A stretch of 64,000 bases of DNA from Candidatus Bathyarchaeota archaeon (GCA_963806535.1 CAWDYC010000003.1:128001-192000), one strand, 5' to 3'. Counted from the stretch's first letter, positions 4,413 to 64,000 are shown. The notes: generated by a model from the letters alone, not told the origin. Numbers and translations are program-made.

Positions 4413-5553
4413 ATGCTGCCAGAAGAAGATAGCATCAACACTATTCTAAAACCATTCATCGGTCCATGGTACGAGTCTCTTGAGAATCCACAGAAAGCAC
4501 AAGAGCAATTGCTCACTGATTTAATCAGCAAGTACGCTCTCACTGATTATGGACTCAGCCATAACGCCTCACAAGTGAAAAGCATCTCGGATTACCAAAA
4601 GAATTTTCCCATCATTAACTATTCTGGACTTATCCCTTATCTCAATCAAATCAGGGAAGGCAACTTTAAGGCGATTTTGCCTGAACCCGCAGAATGCTGG
4701 GTTATGACTCGAGGCTCGACAGGAAAATCAAAAGTTCTTCCAGCAACTCAAACGCATCTAAAACAAATCTTTTCTTGTGGCGCTAGAGCAATAGTGAATT
4801 TTGCGATACAGAAAAAAAGCTATCAAGGTTTTCATGGGTTCAATCCTTAATCTAAACTTTCCTTCAAACGTTCACACCATGGACGTTAACGGTAAAGAAG
4901 TCACTTATGGTTACAGTTCTGGAACTTATGCTCGCCTTAACCCTATGTTCGACAGGGTTAGCTTGCTGCCCAGACAAGAAGAAATAGATGCATTAGGCGC
5001 TGAACTTAGGCGGCAAGACTGGAAGAAACGTTTTGAACTTGTTTACCAACGGCTTAAACAAAGATGTAACAGCCACGATGGGTGTGACTCCTGTAATTCT
5101 GGCTTTCGCCCAGATACGTCAAGCGAAAGCATGGAAAAAAGCCAGCTGACTTATGGAAACCTCAAGCTCTCTTCTGCACAAGCGTACGCAAAATACACTA
5201 TAAGTGGGGTCCAATATTGAAAGCAGTACTTTGGCGATGTGCCAGTTGTGGAAATGTACACTGCTACAGAAGGTGTTTTTGGTCAGCAACTTGATGATTT
5301 ACCTTACATAACGCCAAATTATGATTCATACTTTTTTGAGGTTGCAACTGGCAAAGGCGTAAAAATGCTGCATGAACTTAAACGTGGCGAATGGGGGCGA
5401 CTCTTAATTTCTTCCTGCATGTTTCCCAGATATGACATCGGCGATTTAGTGGAAGCAGCTGGCAAAAACTATTATCGCGTGTTTGGACGCAACAATGCAT
5501 TAACTCTTTTGGAGCACAGGCTTTACCGAATGTTCTTGGGACGGCTAATTTGA
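4413..5553 (+). CDS. GH3 auxin-responsive family acyl-adenylate ligase, frameshifted
   Basis: TRGSTGKSK P-loop-like motif, YTATEG and RYDIGDLV motifs across three ORFs. Confidence 0.8.
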
Positions 5554-13700: not shown

Positions 13701-13817
13701 TCGCCTTCGTCTACCCCTACCGTGCCCGAATTCCCACCAACCTTGGTAATTACAATAATGTTGATAGCAGTGGCAACCTCATTATCCTACGAGATTAAAC
13801 GTTACGGAAAACATTAA
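10752..13817 (+). CDS. Thermopsin-family protease-like surface protein with repeat domains, PT linker and PEF-type sorting tail
   Basis: PAPMGIADYG, QLN, YWVQNV, DSELIIGGPG and NFGSDTAE thermopsin motifs; C-terminal VPEFP, TM helix and basic residues. Confidence 0.88.
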   Translation: MKQLSSGLIYVCFFLLLFATIASPMLCTTFAYSRDNRESSNNSKVPAPTIPRPPPINSNTLSMGPNGQQVNVYSTYTGEPAPMGIADYGVGQNGAYQYNTSSFTGIISINSLATKTSSNDSSMGIQLNVNLAFTSNGKQYVYWVQNVVCIDTSTNTIDYFENNIWNTSARSAGMSNSGIVGNGQVWKSQYYAVEASSSLPGSSAVLQYPATIILNVTCGINFGGQPTVSFSYNDGYGLETYDTVAFITNYPITTFSGFVVNGYNYNPTGYLFYDSELIIGGPGDGANTQLLQSNVRLQLEYWNGQNYQLLRNAYNFGSDTAEGISNTLSQLYYYSSTGSIFAMIQNGSGSLNKLYDQSTMGIIDIKSILISGTLYVTNATYSNAVPWQIPFINGEVAITIVPGRYNLQLYQNGVLYCQANATVTGGQTISLQTTSVTLVPAGASTAVSGTNYFTVSYTLNGQQQFTSAQNNSLVLIIDSSTSVDVSGISSGSNATEEWTLDSFGPLGYWDALIPAGSNATLYYYDTLSQQVAYTISGSGNPAPPILTYNTAPATPSSQLNTSINATTLSGNSQTIMALRGTTVSITNSILGTSQDQWGTPISTWNVSQANQIPSLLTYYHQYQFTTSYATPDNSTPSSPPLLSGTQFGSSCQMSLTNTLLVIWLDENTQWSISDIVIAPSGTEQWIQTADPSTSGTITQSVITPNLLYFHQYYLLVTSAQSNIATSGSGWYNAESTAYAGLASGTATGGAGTQYVFDSWSTGGINYQQSNTIIMNGTVTAAANWNKQYYLTVNSPYGLSSGSGWYNSGSNAQAALLTNIVSGNSGTQYVFSGWTGDASGSDISSNLISMNSPKIAIATWMTQYQLTLEVNPSGCGSTTPTGGNLWVTAGPLLISTSPNSGYSFLQWTANSGSITFANGNSYSTTANVNGPGIITASMALTPTPTPQPTPTPTPSPTLTPVQHSSSSSTSSSTATPTTSANVSPSPSSTPTVPEFPPTLVITIMLIAVATSLSYEIKRYGKH

Positions 13818-14063
13818 CGGTGTTGCGGATTTTAGTATCAGTAAAGTAAACTTACAACTCCTAAATCAAGTTGATTTTTCAAAAACGAAAGTGGAATCGG
13901 TGATTCTTTAACAAATCAAAAAGGTGATTTGGTAGCAGACTTTAGAATCTAGTGACCTTTTCAAAAGAGAATAGTCAATAAGAGTCTATCTCAAGTAGTA
14001 ATCTAAGAAGCTCATTAAAAAATTCGGAGAAAAAAATAAACAAGTAATGGTGAGGCACTTTCG

Positions 14064-17609: not shown

Positions 17610-17826
17610 AAAGCTACCCTCCGTTTCTTGGCGGAAAGTTATTAAAGTTCTAACAACAGCTGGATTCAAAGCAGTGAGCCAGAAAGGCAGCCACATATTT
17701 TTAACTGATGGCAAACACAAGCTAACGGTTTCCCGTCATGACCCTATAAAGAAAGGCACACTTCTCGCCATTATTCAGCAAGCAGGTTTGACCAAAGAAG
17801 AATTTCTTGAATTAATGGAAAAGTAG
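17602..17826 (+). CDS. hicA: HicA-family toxin (not in the ORF track; CTG start)
   Basis: Manual translation SEKLPSVSWRKVIKVLTTAGFKAVSQKGSHIFL...H.PIKKGTLLAIIQQAGLTKEEF contains the GSH motif. Confidence 0.88.
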   Translation: MSEKLPSVSWRKVIKVLTTAGFKAVSQKGSHIFLTDGKHKLTVSRHDPIKKGTLLAIIQQAGLTKEEFLELMEK

Positions 17827-17829
17827 GAG

Positions 17830-17906
17830 TGGAGCCTTCGGCGGGATTTGGACCCGCGACCATTACCTTACCAAGGTAACGCCCCACCGGGCTAGGCTAC
17901 GAAGGC
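17830..17906 (-). tRNA. tRNA-Thr(GGT), CCA encoded
   Basis: Reverse complement GCCTTCG...TTACC TTGGTAA GGTAA...GGTCCAAATCC...CGAAGGCTCCA folds as a cloverleaf. Confidence 0.95.
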
Positions 17907-56690: not shown

Positions 56691-57062
56691 TTAATCCAAA
56701 CAGCTTAAATTGGGCATAACATAAGCAAACTGTGCGGGCCAATCGTCTAGCCTGGTTAGGACGTTGGCTTTACACGCCAAAGGTCGCCGGTTCAACTCCG
56801 GCTCGGCCCACTCCTGATTCCCAAAAGCAGCTTGATTTAAGGTTTTTTGATTTTGTTGACCGTTACTAAATTCCGTAACGCCGTTACAGTTTTCCGTAAC
56901 GTTTAACCCAGAGTTATCAAGCAAAGCAAGTGCATCGCGCATTTGTGCTTTTTTGGCTTTTATGCGATGACGCAATACACGACTATAATCTGCATCAAAG
57001 CTTTCAGGGGACTCTAAGAACTTGTAGTTCGTATTTTGCTTAGCATTTTTTCCATTCCTCAA
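56691..57062 (-). pseudogene. Putative N-terminal fragment of an SSV-type split integrase reading into tRNA-Val
   Basis: ORF runs open antisense through the tRNA (WAEPELNRRPLACKANVL); no catalytic motifs visible, so the call rests on geometry. Confidence 0.55.
56736..56810 (+). tRNA. tRNA-Val(TAC)
   Basis: GGGCCAA...TTGGC TTTACAC GCCAA...GGTTCAACTCC...TCGGCCCA cloverleaf with one A-C mismatch in the acceptor stem. Confidence 0.92.
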
Positions 57063-57565
57063 TTAATGCAAGAAGCTAATCGTCTATTTAACACCTTGAT
57101 TGTACGCATTTTTACGCTATTAACTTTTTACGGTGTTTAATCACCGTGCGGAAGCACACCGCCTTTTAACTCAGAGGTGAAAAGGCATCAGTTGGCTTCC
57201 CTGTTTAGGGGCCCATTTTGCTTTGTTGTTTCTACGACGTTCAAAAGCCGTGTAGAAAGCAACAGTGCCACTCAGGCTTGAATAGCAAAAAGACAAAACA
57301 ACTTGCCAAAACCTTATTTGTGCTAATAATCCTCAAAACGTAATGCTTATAAAGTAAAGTGTAGTGTACATATATTAAAACAAACGCTACCTATAGAGTT
57401 AAGTGTCCGCCGCTCTAAAAGTGCGCCTTGTTAATGAAACATGGAAGGCTTAAAAAATGTGCGGACACGAGAAATATACAACAAAAAAAAGTAAAATTTT
57501 TACAACTAAGCTGGTTTTTTCATCCAGATTAAATGACACCGAACTTTCATTTGGAATGACGCCGA

Positions 57566-58375
57566 ATGCAGAGCTCACCGCTGCGAAAAAGGAGGAACAA
57601 GAGCATGCATAATATTTGGATGCGTAAAATGGAAAACTTTGACAAGGGCTTGGTTAGCTTCCAAAAATTTGATTTAGGATTTATTGGCAATCAAGTTTCC
57701 GTTGCTATTAAGACCTACGATAAGGAAGGGCTTAATCATCAGGGACCACTTGAGAATATTATGGGTCTTGTAGCAGAATTGGCTTTTGAAGAATGGCTAA
57801 AAAGTTTTGGTGGAGTTCGTGGAAAGGATTACGAATGGAACGAACGCAGAGAGGATTATTGGAACAATGACCCAAGATCTTGGGATTTCAGGTTGCTCAA
57901 GAATGGTTTAACTTTTGAAATCGGAGCGGCAAAACCTAATCATCATTTGGCCGTAATGAAAGACGCAGCGCATAAAAAAGAATCTAATTATTTTGTTCAG
58001 GTAAGGATCATTTGGTTTAACTGTAAAATCAAGGTTTTAGATAAATGGTACGTTATTAACGCCAACTCATATACTCCCTTGGAAATAAAGGGCTCAGAAG
58101 AAATAAAATCCCTTGAAGCAGCCCAAGGAATAATCCAGAATGACACAATAGGCGAGGCGCAGATCTGTGGCTTCGATAAAGTCGGCACGATTGTTAAACA
58201 AGAGAATGGTTGGGTGTTTAGCAAAGCAGGCCAAAGGGAAACACCTTTCTCAAACGGCTTCATGAAGGAATTAAGCAATTTGTGCACAAGAAGCGATTTA
58301 GCAGCCATCATAAGGCGTGCCCTCGGTCTCCGCGAAGATAACAAAGAAAGTGAAGCACGACCTTACGGCATTTAA
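57566..58375 (+). CDS. Hypothetical protein, possible PD-(D/E)XK nuclease
   Basis: GLVAELAFEEW helix then WDFRL...TFEIGAAK, resembling a restriction-nuclease core with a displaced Lys. Confidence 0.5.
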   Translation: MQSSPLRKRRNKSMHNIWMRKMENFDKGLVSFQKFDLGFIGNQVSVAIKTYDKEGLNHQGPLENIMGLVAELAFEEWLKSFGGVRGKDYEWNERREDYWNNDPRSWDFRLLKNGLTFEIGAAKPNHHLAVMKDAAHKKESNYFVQVRIIWFNCKIKVLDKWYVINANSYTPLEIKGSEEIKSLEAAQGIIQNDTIGEAQICGFDKVGTIVKQENGWVFSKAGQRETPFSNGFMKELSNLCTRSDLAAIIRRALGLREDNKESEARPYGI

Positions 58376-58426
58376 AAGCCGTGTAAAACTGAGCGCGCCA
58401 TTTTGAAAAAATACAATCTACTGTTG

Positions 58427-58975
58427 CTAAAGTAATGTTGACAAATATGAGAAATTAGCCACGACCAAGGATATCACAAGTAAGGAAAGGAATAAGACTA
58501 AGAACGTTAAAGGGATCCAACGCTCAACCAAAGTAAGCTGTGGATATCTCGTTTTTTGGCTTCCCTGGTTTAAGTAATCCCATTCTTTGGCAAATGCAGC
58601 CACAGGCAATCTTTTTTCCATTTCGTGAATTACTTTGAATTTTGCTTCACTCAGTACTCTATAACATTTAATACTGTTATTCCAAATCAGACAAAAAACA
58701 ATTCCAGAAATAGACACGAGGGCAACCCACCAAAAGTACATGTTGCCAATTGGTTTGCTAACCTGAGATAATACACCAATTATCGTTATCAAAGCCGAAA
58801 CAAGGGTTAAATAAAACGTATTTGATTTGGAACGACGCTCAGAATTATTATCAGCCATTTCAACATATAATTTATACTGCTCAAGCAAATGGTCGTTAAA
58901 TTTCTCGCCATAAGTCTTTTCCTCAATTGGAAAAAGCTTAGTTTCTTTGATACCCGTCATCTCGTTGTTAGTCAT
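58427..58975 (-). CDS. Three-TM membrane protein (RipA-family-like), putative defence effector
   Basis: LLEQYKLYVEMAD..SERR...NTFY, two TMs, W...I..YR.L..AKF.VI.EME..LP...F..EW, third TM; 4 bp downstream of the TIR gene. Confidence 0.75.
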   Translation of the reverse strand: MTNNEMTGIKETKLFPIEEKTYGEKFNDHLLEQYKLYVEMADNNSERRSKSNTFYLTLVSALITIIGVLSQVSKPIGNMYFWWVALVSISGIVFCLIWNNSIKCYRVLSEAKFKVIHEMEKRLPVAAFAKEWDYLNQGSQKTRYPQLTLVERWIPLTFLVLFLSLLVISLVVANFSYLSTLL

Positions 58976-58979
58976 CTTT

Positions 58980-59462
58980 TCACGGAGAATTAATTTCTCG
59001 GTCTATATCTTTTAAATTCCAATTCAATATAGGTGCTTTGTTGTCTTTCATAGCTTCTGGAATAGCATGATTTTTATCACGATTAATTCTAACACCAATG
59101 ACCTTCTTTCCTTGTCTGTAGGCTTCATCTATTTCCCAGTTTACCGCATTCCTCTCTGCGGTCTTTTCACCTATCATAACCACAACTACGCTCGTCTGAG
59201 CAATTCTTTGTTTGCAGTTTGTCCTCCATTTTTCATCAAATGGTTCTTTAACTGAGTAGTCCCTGAACTCAAGGTCATAATTATCGTTCTTTGCCTGCGA
59301 GCGCAAAAGGTCTACTTGAGCTTCATCATCAACATGAAAACTTATGAAAACGTTACGAAGCCGAGCTCGTTCTGCCTCATCAACAGTCCTATCAAAAGCT
59401 GCCTCTGATTCTCCAACACCTTTTGATGAACCAAGGCTATACCCGAAACTACCCCCACCCAT
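58980..59462 (-). CDS. ThsB/MTH538-like TIR-domain protein with Gly-rich N-terminal tail
   Basis: RNVFISF, DYSVKEPF, VVVMIG..T and VNWEI (catalytic Glu); GGTGG SD supports a start at 59462 (MGGGSFGYSLG). Confidence 0.9.
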   Translation of the reverse strand: MGGGSFGYSLGSSKGVGESEAAFDRTVDEAERARLRNVFISFHVDDEAQVDLLRSQAKNDNYDLEFRDYSVKEPFDEKWRTNCKQRIAQTSVVVVMIGEKTAERNAVNWEIDEAYRQGKKVIGVRINRDKNHAIPEAMKDNKAPILNWNLKDIDREINSP

Positions 59463-59519
59463 GATTACCACCATTTTGTTAAAGTCATGTTATCGCTTTT
59501 AAGGTTTTTAAGACTTACC

Positions 59520-60158
59520 TTAGCGGTGATTTGAAGATTTTGAAAGACCATTTTCTGCAGCTATGCGTTCTTTGCAAGAAATACATTCTCCGCACGATTT
59601 CTCGGTCCCAGCATGGCAAGAGTAGGTCAAATTAAGCGGCAATCCATGTTTCCGAGCAAGCATTAAAGAATCAATCTTATCCAAATTTATCAAAGGAGCA
59701 AGAATTGTAATGTTTATGCCTAAGGCAAGGCTCAGCGTTTTTTGTGTTTGTGCCAAGAAATCCTTTGTTTGATCGGGAAATATTGGATTTGCTAAGATAC
59801 CCGTTGCAACAACGTAAGCTCCCTTATCATATCCATAGGCTGCGCCGAAGGTTAGGAAAAGTAGATTCCGCGTAGGAGTGAAGGCTTCCTTTTCAATATC
59901 CAAATCTTTGTTTGTTAGACCGCTTGGTACAATTCTGCCAAAGTCGTGTGCGTTTATTCTTTCGGGAGTTAACTTAAGATAATTACAGATTTTCTGACAG
60001 GATGACCATTCCTCTTCACAGGCAAGTTGTCCATAATCTACAAATAATGGAAAAACTCTGTGCCCTTTCATTTGTAATTGTTGCATAATAACAGAGGAGT
60101 CAACTCCACCCGAGCAAAGAACTACGACTCTCAATTCCTCTTCCTCATATAATTCCAA
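59520..60158 (-). CDS. queC: QueC-family protein (Cap9-like)
   Basis: SGGVDS PP-loop, DYGQ, P.RN, FPD and TYSC...CGECISC zinc site. Confidence 0.93.
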   Translation of the reverse strand: MELYEEEELRVVVLCSGGVDSSVIMQQLQMKGHRVFPLFVDYGQLACEEEWSSCQKICNYLKLTPERINAHDFGRIVPSGLTNKDLDIEKEAFTPTRNLLFLTFGAAYGYDKGAYVVATGILANPIFPDQTKDFLAQTQKTLSLALGINITILAPLINLDKIDSLMLARKHGLPLNLTYSCHAGTEKSCGECISCKERIAAENGLSKSSNHR

Positions 60159-60832
60159 ACAGCCATGTCAAATGTTGCCATTAGTAAGCCTCTCTCCTCG
60201 CACAGTTCTTTGAGAATATCCTCAAGCTCAAGGTATATTCTGGGAGTAACAGATTTTATCTGCAGTCCATTAAGCGCGTTAATCTTTGTCAGAAATGAAA
60301 TAATGTGTGTGTCAATTATTGCGAGTTTTTTAGAATAACCTATATTTCTCAAAAAATGAGATGCTTCCTTAAGACCAATTCCAGAAATATTCTTAATTAG
60401 TGATGATCTTGCATCTTCCTCTGAACTAGAATGAGCCAAAACGCAATGCAACCATGTTTCCTCAGAAGATATGATTGTTGCTGACTTTGTAATATTTTTG
60501 GAGCGAACATTAGGGAAACGATATTTTCTTAGTTCACCATCGGTTTTCTTGGGAAAATAAATTGGCTTTGAAAGCTCTTTAGCAATTATCTTGTCGGCTA
60601 AAGGATTATCAGCTATCCATTCAACGGACAGATAGCCTCGTCTTATCAAATGCCTTACTGCTGAAAAAGCAAGCTCATATGGAACATTACTTGACAAGAT
60701 ACAAAGACATAGTTCATGCCACAAATCAGTTTCTGTCATAAGGTCCCATTTTCGATTTTCAAAGTGGAGAGCTGGTATTGTTGAGTATTCTAACAAAACG
60801 CCGTTAAATGTTTCATTATCTGCAATGAGCAT
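60131..60832 (-). CDS. N-glycosylase/DNA lyase, OGG-like HhH protein (Cap11-like)
   Basis: ELCLCILSS, YRFPN, GIGLKEASHFLRNIG and AIIDTHI, with catalytic Lys and Asp present. Confidence 0.9.
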   Translation of the reverse strand: MLIADNETFNGVLLEYSTIPALHFENRKWDLMTETDLWHELCLCILSSNVPYELAFSAVRHLIRRGYLSVEWIADNPLADKIIAKELSKPIYFPKKTDGELRKYRFPNVRSKNITKSATIISSEETWLHCVLAHSSSEEDARSSLIKNISGIGLKEASHFLRNIGYSKKLAIIDTHIISFLTKINALNGLQIKSVTPRIYLELEDILKELCEERGLLMATFDMAVWNYMRKRN

Positions 60833-60946
60833 TGGTTGAATCTCGGTTTTTATCTTTACATTTAGAATGCGCTAAAAATATATATCCTTAACTATTTTTC
60901 ATTTAATTAATTTTGATCACTTTTTATTGCATTATAGATAAATATT

Positions 60947-61957
60947 CTAAAATTTATCTATTCTATTAAGAATATCGTCACCAATTTGAACCTTCAGAGA
61001 AGCACGTAAATTGTCATAACGTATCATATTCTGCATTTTGACAACAAAGTCTTGATAATATAGCAGATTATGCAATAAAGCCCTGTCTAAATAGGCTGAT
61101 GATGCCAATTTAGGATTGCTGCAGATTCTACATTTGCAATTAATCAAATCAAGATGTGAAAAATCTTTTATTGTGTCGTCTCCGGGGTCCAAAATATGTT
61201 CGATCCAATCTAAGCTGTCGAAACTGTCAGAACCGCAATACGCATAAATTAACATTGAAATAGGGTTTCCACAACCTAAGACATGTAAAAGAAACCTTTC
61301 ATCACTTTTGTCAAGAATGTGTCTGATTTCAGTAAGAGTTTCCGCTCTTTCCAAAATGCCTTTACCGCAATCCCTTTCAGAAACAGCAATACCACAACAC
61401 AAACTGGAATACTCATCAATAAAATCACTAACTAATGCCAATTGATGGTCAACTGATTTTCCATGAAGGATCGGCAGAAAAATATTTCCACCACAGAAGG
61501 CTGATGATTCAACCGCTGCTTGCACTACATTTTCTTGGTATTGTTTAACGTTCTTGGTATTTTCCGCGGTTGGAAGAATATCGAAGCCGGTAAAGATATC
61601 CATCGTGACCTGAGAAATAACGCTTTTGTATGCTTTCATATCCCAAGTTGGATCATTCTTATTATCGCTCTCAAATACGCCGCTATCCAAAAGTAAAAAG
61701 CCTTGTTTTCTAAATTCAGCGATGCTTTGCTTAAGTTTTTCTTTTTCTTCGAGTTTGTTAATATCATAAGCTGAAAGCAATAATCGCGGATACTTATTAT
61801 GTTTTAGCATGTAAAAAAGTTCAGTCAAAGAAAATCGGTTTTTAGTACTGGACAACGATGGAAAATAGGTTGGAGTATTGAAGACCTTATTTTCAAATTT
61901 TATCTCACAAATCCTTGCAAGTTTCCCATTTTTATGTTGTATTGTTGCTTTATTCAA
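60947..61957 (-). CDS. tRNA-guanine transglycosylase-like protein (Cap10-like)
   Basis: TPTYFP, LLDSG, FDI, ILHG, HVLG, DSFDS and CKCRIC...HN zinc site. Confidence 0.87.
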   Translation of the reverse strand: MNKATIQHKNGKLARICEIKFENKVFNTPTYFPSLSSTKNRFSLTELFYMLKHNKYPRLLLSAYDINKLEEKEKLKQSIAEFRKQGFLLLDSGVFESDNKNDPTWDMKAYKSVISQVTMDIFTGFDILPTAENTKNVKQYQENVVQAAVESSAFCGGNIFLPILHGKSVDHQLALVSDFIDEYSSLCCGIAVSERDCGKGILERAETLTEIRHILDKSDERFLLHVLGCGNPISMLIYAYCGSDSFDSLDWIEHILDPGDDTIKDFSHLDLINCKCRICSNPKLASSAYLDRALLHNLLYYQDFVVKMQNMIRYDNLRASLKVQIGDDILNRIDKF

Positions 61958-62106
61958 CTAAGGCACTCCAGATCCTTATTTCAATAGTTCCTATTTGTAG
62001 GGTTATATTATAAAGAATTAACTACTAAATAGAATTATACAAAGAAACTTACCTTGAAAAGTTAGAAATAAATGATTTACTAAAGGATAGTCTGTGTGGA
62101 AGACAT

Positions 62107-62580
62107 TTGAAGAGGCTAACTTTAAGCGTAGCTCAAACAGCAATTTTCGCTTCTATTTATGCTGTTTCATCGATTTTGCTTGGGCCACTGGGATATTCAT
62201 GGATTCAGTTACGGATTGGAGAAGCCTTGACTCCCCTGCCGCTACTTTTTGGAATTCCTGCAATGGCTGGATTAACCATCGGGTGTTTTGTTACCAATTT
62301 AACGAGCCCAGTGGGTTTGCCTGACATGGTTTTCGGGCCCTTACTGACTCTAATTGCCGCATTTCTTTCTTGGAAATTAACATTTGGCAAACGCATTTTA
62401 GCTTGTTTATATCCGGTTATCATAAATGCAATAGGCGTAAGTGCCTATCTTTCATCTTTCTATGGCGTCCCATACTTGGTCACCGTTTTGACCGTTGGCG
62501 CTGGAGAGTTTGTTGCTGCAGTTATTATTGGATATCCAACATTATTGGCGTTAAGAAAATTTATGGGTAATAAAAAGTAG
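62107..62580 (+). CDS. queT: QueT-family queuosine-precursor transporter
   Basis: A.FA.IY, IQLRIGEAL..LP, GLTIGC..TN, DMVFG, PVIINA and GE motifs. Confidence 0.87.
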   Translation: MKRLTLSVAQTAIFASIYAVSSILLGPLGYSWIQLRIGEALTPLPLLFGIPAMAGLTIGCFVTNLTSPVGLPDMVFGPLLTLIAAFLSWKLTFGKRILACLYPVIINAIGVSAYLSSFYGVPYLVTVLTVGAGEFVAAVIIGYPTLLALRKFMGNKK

Positions 62581-62712
62581 AGATTCTTTTGTTTCGTCGT
62601 GACTTTACTCAGGCCTCAAATCCCTCGCTCACTCAATGAGGGTACGTCATAGTGAGTTGTGCACGTGATTGAACACCGTGCAAAAGCGTAGAGCCGTGAG
62701 CTTTGGAGCCAT

Positions 62713-63236
62713 CTATGAAATCTGACTAATACATTCCTGCAACAGTTGCCGATAAGTTGCTTGCCAACCGTTTGAAGGGAATGGTATAGATATTTTGTTC
62801 AGTAATCTCTCGCCAAAACCGGCTTCTTCAAGTGCAAGCTTGACTGGGGCAAATAAATTATTTTTCAAAATAATGATTCTTTCTGGCTGAAGGCTTCTAA
62901 TATCATTTACAAGCCTTGGAATTTGATCTTTTAGAACTCTGTTTTTTCCGCAATAGGCAACTTGTTGACTGGTCTATAGCTGGCATCTATCAAGAAGAAT
63001 CCTCTTGATTGGAACTCTTTTAGCTGGGTGTTTTTGTCAGTGCCGACAGGTAATTTGCCACAAGGAATTTTCAATGCTTTCATTGTTTCCCTGAATAAAC
63101 AGCCACGACCGGTTGCTGACTCAAAATAAAAGTATCCGCCGCCTTCGGGTGGTGACTCGCCAATAAGAAGGAATTCAATGTCTTTGCCTATTCGTCGTGG
63201 GTCATATTTGTCCCTTGCTTCAATATAGTCTTGCAT
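62713..63236 (-). CDS. Uracil-DNA-glycosylase-like superfamily protein, frameshifted at about 62935
   Basis: LLIGESPP..GYFY and GFFLID; second frame gives L.PERIII...IPFPSNGW. Confidence 0.65.
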
Positions 63237-63625
63237 GTCAACAGCTACGGCTTCTGATTTATTAGATTTAGCGGATAAATACGATGATTCTTTGTCGCCA
63301 ACTTGTTTAATCTTAATAGCCTATGTACTTGTACGGTGATTGAACACCGTGAAGAAGCATAGGCCGTAGTAAAAAGCGGAGATTAGCATTAACCGATCAA
63401 GTCAAACATATTTGAAGCCTAATATGTTTCAGGGAGCTTGCATTAGCACCTTAAAGCACTGTTGTGTTTCTGTACGGTGTTCAAACACCGTGGCTAAACA
63501 TAGGCTAAGGACAAAGGCGACGGAAGACCAAGCATGGTCGAATCCTACTTAAGCTATGATCCAGTTGAACTGCTAAAATATTCGACCGGCTTTCTCGACC
63601 GAAAAAATCAAAATGAGTCATTTTT

Positions 63626-63829
63626 TTACTTATGCCAGAGCCTACTTAATAGATAGATTACAGCGGTAGCTGCAAGCAGCACTGGAACTATGAACACATT
63701 AGCTTCCATCCACTGCCAAATTGGTCCCGGTAACCCAAACATACCTATGCCATAACCAGCTAAGACTACAATCCAAACAAAACTATACAGGGCGATTACT
63801 GCAATCCATACCTTCATGAGCTTACGCAT
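63626..63829 (-). CDS. Small two-TM membrane protein
   Basis: MRKLMKVWIAVIAL... hydrophobic pair; start is probably internal to the tracked ORF. Confidence 0.55.
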   Translation of the reverse strand: MRKLMKVWIAVIALYSFVWIVVLAGYGIGMFGLPGPIWQWMEANVFIVPVLLAATAVIYLLSRLWHK

Positions 63830-63917: not shown

Positions 63918-64000
63918 TTGCCGAAGCGATATGTTAACATAAAATTGCCTGTTGAGCTTGCAGACGAAGTTGACAAAATCGTGGATAAGAAGCTTCTGGG
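63918..64000 (+). CDS. Ribbon-helix-helix (CopG-like) protein, truncated by the window edge
   Basis: Manual translation MPKRYVNIKLPVELADEVDKIVDKKLLG. Confidence 0.7.
   Translation, partial: MPKRYVNIKLPVELADEVDKIVDKKLL

Follow-up and report, generated by a model that had tools for sequence, protein, structure and literature searches.

The DNA analyzed here is a stretch of 64,000 nucleotides (the window; contig C3:128001-192000) from the genome of a Candidatus Bathyarchaeota archaeon (GCA_963806535.1, here G000; 2,948,905 bp in 12 contigs). Its right end carries an island, a 9.05-kb element (locus L001) that lies in a tRNA-Val(TAC) gene and continues past the end of the window; 45-nt direct repeats and the two parts of a split integrase gene mark its borders. 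Eight copies of a 20-bp palindrome, all of those in the genome, are found in this element, and they may be binding sites for a dimeric protein.

Integration site and split integrase

The two copies of the direct repeat (L001:8767-8811 and 17818-17862) are 98% identical and 9,051 bp apart (Table 1). The open reading frame (ORF) of the N-terminal integrase piece, Int(N) (L001:8691-9062, minus strand), terminates with ...WAEPELNRRPLACKA within the repeat, that of the C-terminal piece, Int(C) (L001:17439-17861, minus strand), opens with MAEPELNRRPLACKA, and both ORFs encode AEPELNRRPLACKA from the repeat. The att site is thus internal to the integrase ORF, whose pieces Int(N) and Int(C) lie at the two ends of the element and each extend through the repeat. 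The C-terminal piece (L001:16978-17496, minus strand) matches the archaeal phage integrase family PF16795 (4.9e-08), which is also matched in the related genomes G019 (1.2e-31) and G020 (1.4e-05). A gene split by att and a PF16795 catalytic domain are the two marks of the SSV-type, or suicidal, integrase, described in PMC8371274 as having the att site within its own gene, so that integration into a tRNA gene splits it into flanking Int(N) and Int(C) parts. The same layout is present in G019, G020, G014 and at the metagenome locus L126. The initial annotation of this DNA had proposed looking for a tyrosine recombinase beyond 64 kb; an SSV-type integrase is indeed encoded there, but its target is the tRNA repeat and not the palindromes.

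The Int(N) coding region itself contains a tandem pair of other 20-bp palindromes, CGTTAC-N8-GTAACG, 21 bp apart (window 56860-56900) and 50-90 bp from the att repeat. The pair encodes a conserved peptide, VTENCNxVTEF, and recurs at L024, L029, L030, L137 and L154; its DNA symmetry suggests candidate binding sites for the integrase or an accessory protein within coding sequence. The tRNA-Val 3' end has a third copy, shorter than the other two and located past the window (L001:19645-19664, about window 67645), which delimits a further 1.8 kb with the gene for a NosD-like, Pro/Thr-rich surface protein of 531 amino acids (aa), a segment that may be the remnant of a second, tandem integration. Far to the left, 84 nt (window 13795-13878; G000:C3:141795-141878) resemble a portion of the Int(N) region at 77% identity; they lie ~4 kb from a tRNA-Thr(GGT) gene (17830-17906), gave no protein-level match and are possibly left from another such element.

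Table 1 Features of the integrated element, in window coordinates
Feature	Position	Strand	Description
tRNA-Val(TAC)	56736..56811	+	ARAGORN; Rfam tRNA 60 bits; 3' 45 nt are attL
Int(N), SSV-type integrase N-terminal piece	56812..57062	-	Frame continues into the tRNA-derived repeat
Site 1	57129..57148		Class I, TACGGTGTTTAATCACCGTG; 67 bp upstream of the Int(N) start codon
Site 2	57233..57252		Class II, one arm mismatch, TACGACGTTCAAAAGCCGTG
269-aa protein, backbone-position gene	57566..58375	+	No assigned family; 'nuclease-like' in the initial annotation
Site 3	58364..58383		Class II, TACGGCATTTAAAAGCCGTG; convergent spacer; covers last four codons and stop of the 269-aa gene
Cargo operon	58427..61957	-	8xMP membrane protein, ThsB-like TIR, QueC, Ogg-type glycosylase, TGT/DpdA-like transglycosylase
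QueT transporter, cargo	62107..62580	+	PF06177, 1.4e-35
Block A, conserved non-coding	62608..62629	+	CTCAGGCCTCAAATCCCTCGC; upstream of the middle site cluster
Site 4	62661..62680		Degenerate class I, left arm minus one base (GCACGTG...); 13.0 bits
Frameshifted gene	62713..63236	-	Between sites 4 and 5; two frames, one shift; 'UDG-like' in the initial annotation
Site 5	63332..63351		Class I, TACGGTGATTGAACACCGTG, flank AAGAAGCATAGGCCGT
Site 6	63473..63492		Class I, TACGGTGTTCAAACACCGTG; 30.0 bits, the best score
Block B, conserved non-coding, ~90 nt	63521..63615	+	..AAGCATGGTCGAATCC..N37..ATTCGACC..
67-aa two-helix membrane ORF	63626..63829	-	Uncertain gene, from ORF list; weak Pfam noise only
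~49-aa ribbon-helix-helix (CopG-type) gene	63918..64067	+	Window ends at 64000; PF01402, 1.8e-4, 21.7 bits (cut-off 20.5)
Site 7	64095-64114		Opposite orientation, TACGGCGTTTAAAAGCCATG on minus strand; beyond window
Site 8	64203-64222		TACGGTGTTCGATCACCGTA; just beyond window
186-aa membrane protein	64332-64892		Beyond window
Int(C)	64978-65861	-	Beyond window; one frameshift relative to the intact L126 homologue
attR (right repeat copy)	about 65818-65862		Beyond window

A palindrome private to the element

The palindrome has the consensus Y-ACGG-YN-TTYRAA-NR-CCGT-R. Five of the eight copies are perfect and three degenerate, and all fall within 7.1 kb of the element. The strict form, YACGGY-N8-RCCGTG, occurs exactly at 57129, 58364, 63332 and 63473, four times against an expectation of 0.02, and none of 100 dinucleotide-preserving shuffles gave four matches. 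Allowing mismatches adds the copy at 57233, which has one (TACGAC); the other matches so obtained have two and are at chance level (16 seen, 10.2 expected). Six copies had been listed in the initial annotation, of which the one at 62661/62662 exists only in degenerate form, and two, sites 7 and 8, had been overlooked. The asymmetry ascribed to them is real in the copies listed, yet it fails for the full set of eight, since 64095 is inverted, and in the elements of G019 and L126 the outer T...G asymmetry is not maintained.

Over the entire 2.95-Mb genome the strict pattern matched four times, each time at this locus, and the relaxed core added one further copy, at window position 64203. A weight matrix made from six of the sites, which score high by construction, placed all eight sites at this locus, where scores of 22 bits or more compare with a best of 19.5 elsewhere in the genome; the site at 64095, left out of matrix building, scores 23.2 bits. 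The statement that the motif is confined to the island, made originally by eye, thus holds genome-wide. Across 185,579 species genomes, the form with 16 specified bases matched 84 stretches, with more than one match only on a contig of G019, and a scan of IMG/VR returned five matches, each of them single. The palindromes are real and the observation is stronger than first stated.

Other origins of the motif were considered and rejected. Chance or a genome-wide repeat is contradicted by the shuffles and by the genome, species-genome and IMG/VR scans. A host regulon or a dif-like site disagrees with the location of the best matches outside the element, the top three of which lie within long reading frames. 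An origin from a tRNA T-arm or from old att scars is contradicted by the 39 tRNAs of the genome, none of which has a matching T-arm.

Anatomy of the sites

For a comparison across elements, 23 sites from G000, G019 and L126 were used, site 4, a copy with a deletion, being left out. Positions 2-5 and 16-19 read ACGG and CCGT in 21 to 23 of the 23 sites. Position 6/15 is T-A in 10, C-G in 12 and T-G in 1, which defines two site classes, ACGGTG-N6-CACCGT and ACGGC-N8-GCCGT. The center is symmetric too (TTYRAA), and the central spacers vary among sites, only sites 4 and 5 sharing theirs (ATTGAA).

About half of the sites are preceded by a polar flank, (ACGG)NN-TATGCTTC-NN, so that a unit of ~38 nt is formed by a third ACGG half-site, TATGCTTC and the palindrome. 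These units are 82-100% identical between elements, compared with 72-81% for backbone coding DNA. Site 5 is identical at 23 of 23 positions to a G019 site (L015:7998-8020), and the unit of site 2 shares 89% identity across 36 nt with the Int-proximal unit of L126. Within G000, the center, right arm and flank of site 4 are those of site 5; the downstream sequence that these two copies were originally noted to share amounts to ~17 nt of common flank. The units of sites 1 and 8 also form a 57-nt inverted repeat (74%; arms at window 57127-57183 and L001:16168-16224, about window 64168-64224) that encloses the 7-kb interior of the element.

Recurrence in related elements

In 41 genomes of the genus and order, no part of the element's DNA had a match other than the tRNA and the two pieces of the integrase; G019 was the exception, with two matches to the surroundings of site 5. 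The G019 element, 5.6 kb long and located in tRNA-Arg(GCG), has three clusters with a total of eight sites of this motif. Its genes are quite unlike those of G000, and encode an AbrB-like protein, proteins of 269 and 151 aa, an HNH protein and a 152-aa protein, the N-terminus of which looks like a ribbon-helix-helix (RHH) domain by eye and has no Pfam match. In a six-frame comparison of G000 and G019, the integrase N-terminus is the sole common protein, and the two Int(C) are barely alike. When metagenome contigs were searched with an alignment of Int(N), 40 loci were retrieved, four of them with the motif. Three of these correspond to the G019 element and preserve its site spacing, so that no rearrangement is visible. 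The remaining one, L126, represents a further element, of 6.2 kb and in tRNA-Val, whose eight sites all belong to class II and whose cargo differs once more.

Other members of the family have other palindromes. The integrase of G020 is close to that of G000, yet its element has six copies of a different palindrome, GTACGAATATTCGTAC. Elsewhere, differing palindromes of 16-22 bp precede the integrase by ~100-250 bp, and some of them have a distant second copy; at least eight different palindromes are known at this homologous position, and a palindrome-aware scan found none in G014. The same palindrome is thus found with two barely related catalytic halves, and near-identical integrases are found with different palindromes.

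The borders of homology differ from pair to pair. Between G019 and G020, homology breaks exactly over the palindrome-bearing segment, a break that might be likened to exchanged immunity regions. Between G019 and L126, it extends over 1,019 bp (72%), spans a whole site cluster and stops ~77 bp short of the gene for a ~250-270-aa protein, where no site exists. When G000 is compared with L126, the units stand out as homologous islands, the DNA around them being unrelated. G020 also encodes a 49-aa fragment (L013:7324-7473) that resembles the C-terminus of the G019-type (tRNA-Arg) integrase and lies beside an intact Int(C) of the tRNA-Val type; elements with different integrases would therefore seem to have recombined.

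Site placement and conserved non-coding blocks

With the exception of 12 nt of site 3, none of the 24 sites of G000, G019 and L126 overlaps a supported gene; the non-coding share of the G000 element is ~20%, from the sum of ORF coordinates. The three elements have 11 site-bearing spacers, nine of which hold at least one gene start and, together, 22 of the 24 sites. Spacers internal to the cargo, such as that between the TGT-like gene and QueT, contain no site. The common layout is Int(N), sites, a ~250-270-aa gene with an optional AbrB gene, one or more sites, cargo, further sites and, farther on, Int(C). Several sites are 8-17 nt from TATA-like boxes, which were read by eye only; a scan for sigma-70 promoters and terminators, a method ill-suited to archaea, was near shuffle expectation.

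In all three elements, the middle site cluster is framed by two conserved non-coding blocks, A and B. Block A is identical at 18 of 18 positions in G020 (L013:6412-6429) and is also present in G019 (L015:7918) and L126; it is loosely similar to a tRNA T-arm plus acceptor stem, with tRNA-Arg(CCT) as the nearest. Block B, which reads GCGATGGTCGAATCC...N35-37...ATTCGACC..ATTTTCG across elements, is present in all five (G000, G019, G020, G014 and L126), with copies at L015:8113-8222, L013:6502-6611, L126:7774-7883 and 5351-5460, and several in L014. In G014 and L126 it is repeated, and the copies flank genes. A structured RNA was considered for block B and rejected: it has a conserved long-range inverted repeat, but compensatory change occurs in none of seven predicted pairs. 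An Rfam scan detected only the tRNA and no family for other element DNA.

The palindromes could in principle act through base pairing only, their sequence being otherwise irrelevant, as hairpins or cruciforms that serve as origin elements beside block B, as bidirectional terminators or as RNA-stabilizing stem-loops. Pairing is maintained among family members in which the arms vary freely, as the palindromes at the homologous position demonstrate; position 6/15 switches jointly from T-A to C-G; no protein co-varying with the motif was found; and the arrangement resembles the bipartite origin of archaeal Rep-Arvir replicons, as described in PMC13107129. On the other hand, the ACGG core is retained in the 23 sites of three elements while the centers have diverged, and the center is itself symmetric, as a loop would not need to be. 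Two of the three G019 clusters are situated between divergent gene starts, where transcripts do not end, the backbone proteins of G000, G019 and G020 have no Rep-type Pfam match, and block B lacks both compensatory changes and an Rfam family. Stems of 6-7 bp are, furthermore, short for cruciform extrusion. We regard a purely structural role as very unlikely; the invariant core beside diverged centers, together with the symmetry of the center, points to recognition of double-stranded DNA by a dimer rather than to mere hairpin formation.

Gene content and state of the element

The gene labels of the initial annotation survive in part. TGT, Ogg, QueC, ThsB-TIR, 8xMP and QueT are borne out by Pfam, whereas 'nuclease-like' and 'UDG-like' find no support in Pfam, in a PDB sequence search or in single-sequence folds. 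The 269-aa protein, the former 'nuclease', has no match in Pfam, PADLOC or the PDB sequence search, and Atlas gave only unnamed, mostly viral clusters; its fold predicted without an alignment was unusable (predicted local distance difference test, pLDDT, 33.7). A homologue in L157 (44% over 243 aa) adjoins an AbrB gene and Int(N). The stop codon said to lie inside the site at 58364 does so, and it is that of the 269-aa gene.

The cargo matches PF24838, PF08937, PF06508, PF22175 and PF01702 in Pfam, and ThsB, QueC and TGT in PADLOC; the TGT-like protein, used as a single query, had no close relative in the genome contig collection. Taken together (window 58427-62580), these genes combine 7-deazaguanine functions with a TIR effector, which is an unusual pairing. 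No Pfam family was matched by the frameshifted gene that separates sites 4 and 5. Its intact homologues (~50% identity) are found only in another family of the class, in 16 of 43 genomes there and in none of the 48 genomes of its own family, with 18 of 301 overall, G000 included.

The element in G000 looks partly decayed, and its sites may be out of use. Int(C) and the gene between sites 4 and 5 are both frameshifted, AbrB, the partner of 269-aa homologues elsewhere, is absent from G000, and three of the eight sites are degenerate; the sites might therefore be relics here even if they function in the family. Five of them are nevertheless perfect and as well preserved as those of G019 and L126, and either frameshift could be an assembly error, the genome being metagenome-assembled. 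That the sites are inert relics of an element unable to move or to regulate itself is rather unlikely, and would be compatible with a protein-binding role in the family as a whole.

The palindromes as possible exchange points

It had been proposed that the sites partition the island into an integron-like array of exchangeable defense cassettes. The sole recombinase is, however, the PF16795 SSV-type integrase, and there is no IntI with attI and a cassette promoter; nor does each of a series of co-oriented, promoterless cassettes carry one attC, the sites being 20 bp long and the genes on both strands. Clusters of sites without genes, genes in both directions, differing centers and multi-gene modules whose internal spacers have no sites contradict the proposal as well. 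As a statement of membership the integron interpretation is unsupported, and as a mechanism it is weak; the cassette idea survives, as a weaker point, solely for the gene with a frameshift that sites 62661 and 63332 enclose.

In a broader form, the ~38-nt units would be recombination junctions at which elements exchange modules, through a site-specific recombinase in integron-like fashion or through homologous recombination of the short units with each other. In each of the three elements, the sites lie where conserved backbone gives way to variable cargo, and the units are the islands of homology that G000 and L126 share. The foreign, frameshifted gene lies between direct repeats, sites 4 and 5, with identical center and flank, and in G019 the equivalents of these sites are only 58 bp apart within the same frame of block A, sites and block B. 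Arms of 6-7 bp around a spacer of 6-8 bp match the core geometry of tyrosine recombinases, and the archaeal dif site is described in PMC8371274 as inverted repeats about a 6-nt spacer.

Several results disagree with such junctions. The only recombinase is specific for the tRNA att site, and motif-bearing elements have two barely related catalytic types. Centers differ in every pair except sites 4 and 5, clusters of two to five sites enclose no ORF, and genes occupy both strands. The G019-L126 homology crosses an entire cluster, and the ~250-270-aa gene has been replaced at a left breakpoint without a site; between G019 and G020 the palindrome-bearing segment itself has been exchanged. Homologues of the inserted gene elsewhere have no site (none of nine loci above 13 bits), and the three metagenome copies of the G019 element are identical in site spacing, with no rearrangement. 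Units acting as recombination junctions are therefore unlikely, and it is more doubtful still that they are the true exchange sites of an archaeal cassette system, in which defense genes would enter and leave a suicidal-integrase backbone at the palindromes. If this were so, the mini-elements would be an archaeal functional analogue of integrons made from other parts, and exchange at the sites would be a new route for shuffling archaeal defense genes.

Proposed operator-like sites for a dimeric protein

The reading that we favor, tentatively, is that the palindromes are sequence-specific sites of the element backbone, operator- or iteron-like and predicted to be bound as double-stranded DNA by a dimeric protein. 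They are private to the element, non-random and dyad-symmetric, have an invariant core, recur in three independent elements and occupy spacers with gene starts; protein binding, and with it repression, we infer from the DNA sequence. The recurrence counts in favor of such sites because G019 and L126 have eight each despite unrelated cargo, and so does the presence of a different palindrome at the homologous position upstream of the integrase, with the G019/G020 break over it.

The sites would belong to the conserved non-coding backbone of small (5.6-9 kb) elements of Bathyarchaeia, which would enter tRNA genes by means of a self-splitting SSV-type integrase and bear variable anti-virus cargo. 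Three kinds of spacer would be involved, one from the start of the integrase gene to the neighboring backbone gene, one between backbone and cargo, and one ahead of the integrase-distal module. Most likely, one protein would occupy all clusters and set transcription of the integrase and of the pair of AbrB and the ~250-270-aa gene; the same protein would also set read-through into the cargo.

A number of observations weigh against this assignment. Two spacers, both in G000, have no gene start; they are convergent and hold single variant copies (58364 and 62661). A promoter calibration on 888 long ORFs of G000 gave only weak TATA-like enrichment. The host chromosome has no site, which disfavors a host regulator with its own regulon. 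None of the candidate regulators follows the motif. The RHH protein of G000 has no similarity to the RHH-like protein of G019, and no RHH protein was seen in L126 among ORFs of at least 50 aa, read without a Pfam scan. AbrB is 77-85% identical in five elements (L126, G020, L127, L143 and L027), four of which have four different palindromes while none was found in L027, and it is absent from the entire G000 genome. Among the ~250-270-aa proteins there are at least three families without relationship to one another; each is also seen beside AbrB elsewhere, and their distribution does not track the motif. Integrase N-domains that are 60-80% identical accompany different palindromes, and the model of the Int(N) domain is one long helix (mean pLDDT 66.9), not a DNA-binding fold.

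Int(N) was accordingly rejected as the binder, given near-identical N-domains with other palindromes and the single-long-helix model, as were AbrB, the RHH and the ~250-270-aa proteins, none of which co-varies with the motif. An operator array would be expected to come with its cognate regulator, and since RHH, AbrB, the ~250-270-aa proteins and the integrase halves all fail to co-occur with the motif, we describe the palindromes as operator-like but do not class them as an operator array. Operator sites had been the fallback of the initial annotation. Position and symmetry of the sites do fit this better than an integron, but the RHH protein named there is not common to the three motif-bearing elements.

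Relation to known systems

Tests for previous descriptions by full-text literature searches returned none of such Bathyarchaeia elements, of their non-coding backbone or of their role as defense carriers; in their available text, PMC8371274 and PMC7253208 do not mention Bathyarchaeia, and PMC7253208 mentions neither palindromes nor inverted repeats. On the literature searched, this family of defense-carrying suicidal-integrase mini-elements appears to be previously undescribed. Small elements with self-splitting integrases in tRNA genes were already known from hyperthermophiles and deep-sea archaea; the cargo here consists of defense genes such as ThsB-TIR, QueC/TGT-type and HNH. The palindromes provide a simple sequence handle for locating regulatory or exchange points of the family, and their binder, if found, would reveal how an element controls its genes although integration destroys its integrase.

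In an integron, IntI is encoded next to attI and a cassette promoter, and an attC of 57-141 bp, an imperfect palindrome, is located 3' of each cassette. The present elements are similar in that repeated imperfect palindromes border variable genes near a tyrosine recombinase, and one gene lies between direct repeats. They differ in that the sites are 20 bp instead of 57-141 bp, symmetric as double strands, with an invariant core and several per spacer; they lack an IntI-type integrase, an attI and a common promoter, genes run both ways, and homologues of the enclosed gene occur elsewhere without a site. Omega of pSM19035 and F55 of SSV1 are global regulators with operator arrays. Here, too, element-private short repeats are clustered in several putative promoter-bearing spacers, with a small dimeric binder presumed; in contrast to those arrays, the motif has no co-occurring regulator and is the same in elements that share no small DNA-binding protein.

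Rep-Arvir replicons have, according to PMC13107129, a bipartite rolling-circle origin in which a variable palindrome adjoins a conserved hairpin or inverted repeat. The likeness is that both are integrating replicons of archaea with a variable palindrome beside a conserved inverted-repeat element; here, however, eight palindromes are spread across the element instead of one beside rep, and no Rep-like gene was found beside a palindrome, either by Pfam among the backbone proteins of G000, G019 and G020 or among the L126 proteins, which were scanned with PADLOC only. With SSV1, pTN3 and pT26-2, as reviewed in PMC8371274, the elements share the att site in the integrase gene, the split in a tRNA gene and the PF16795 catalytic part. 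Compared with these three, the elements of the present family have no recognizable replication or virion genes and are tiny (5.6-9 kb); they reside in Bathyarchaeia, bear defense cargo and combine multi-copy private palindromes with the non-coding blocks A and B.

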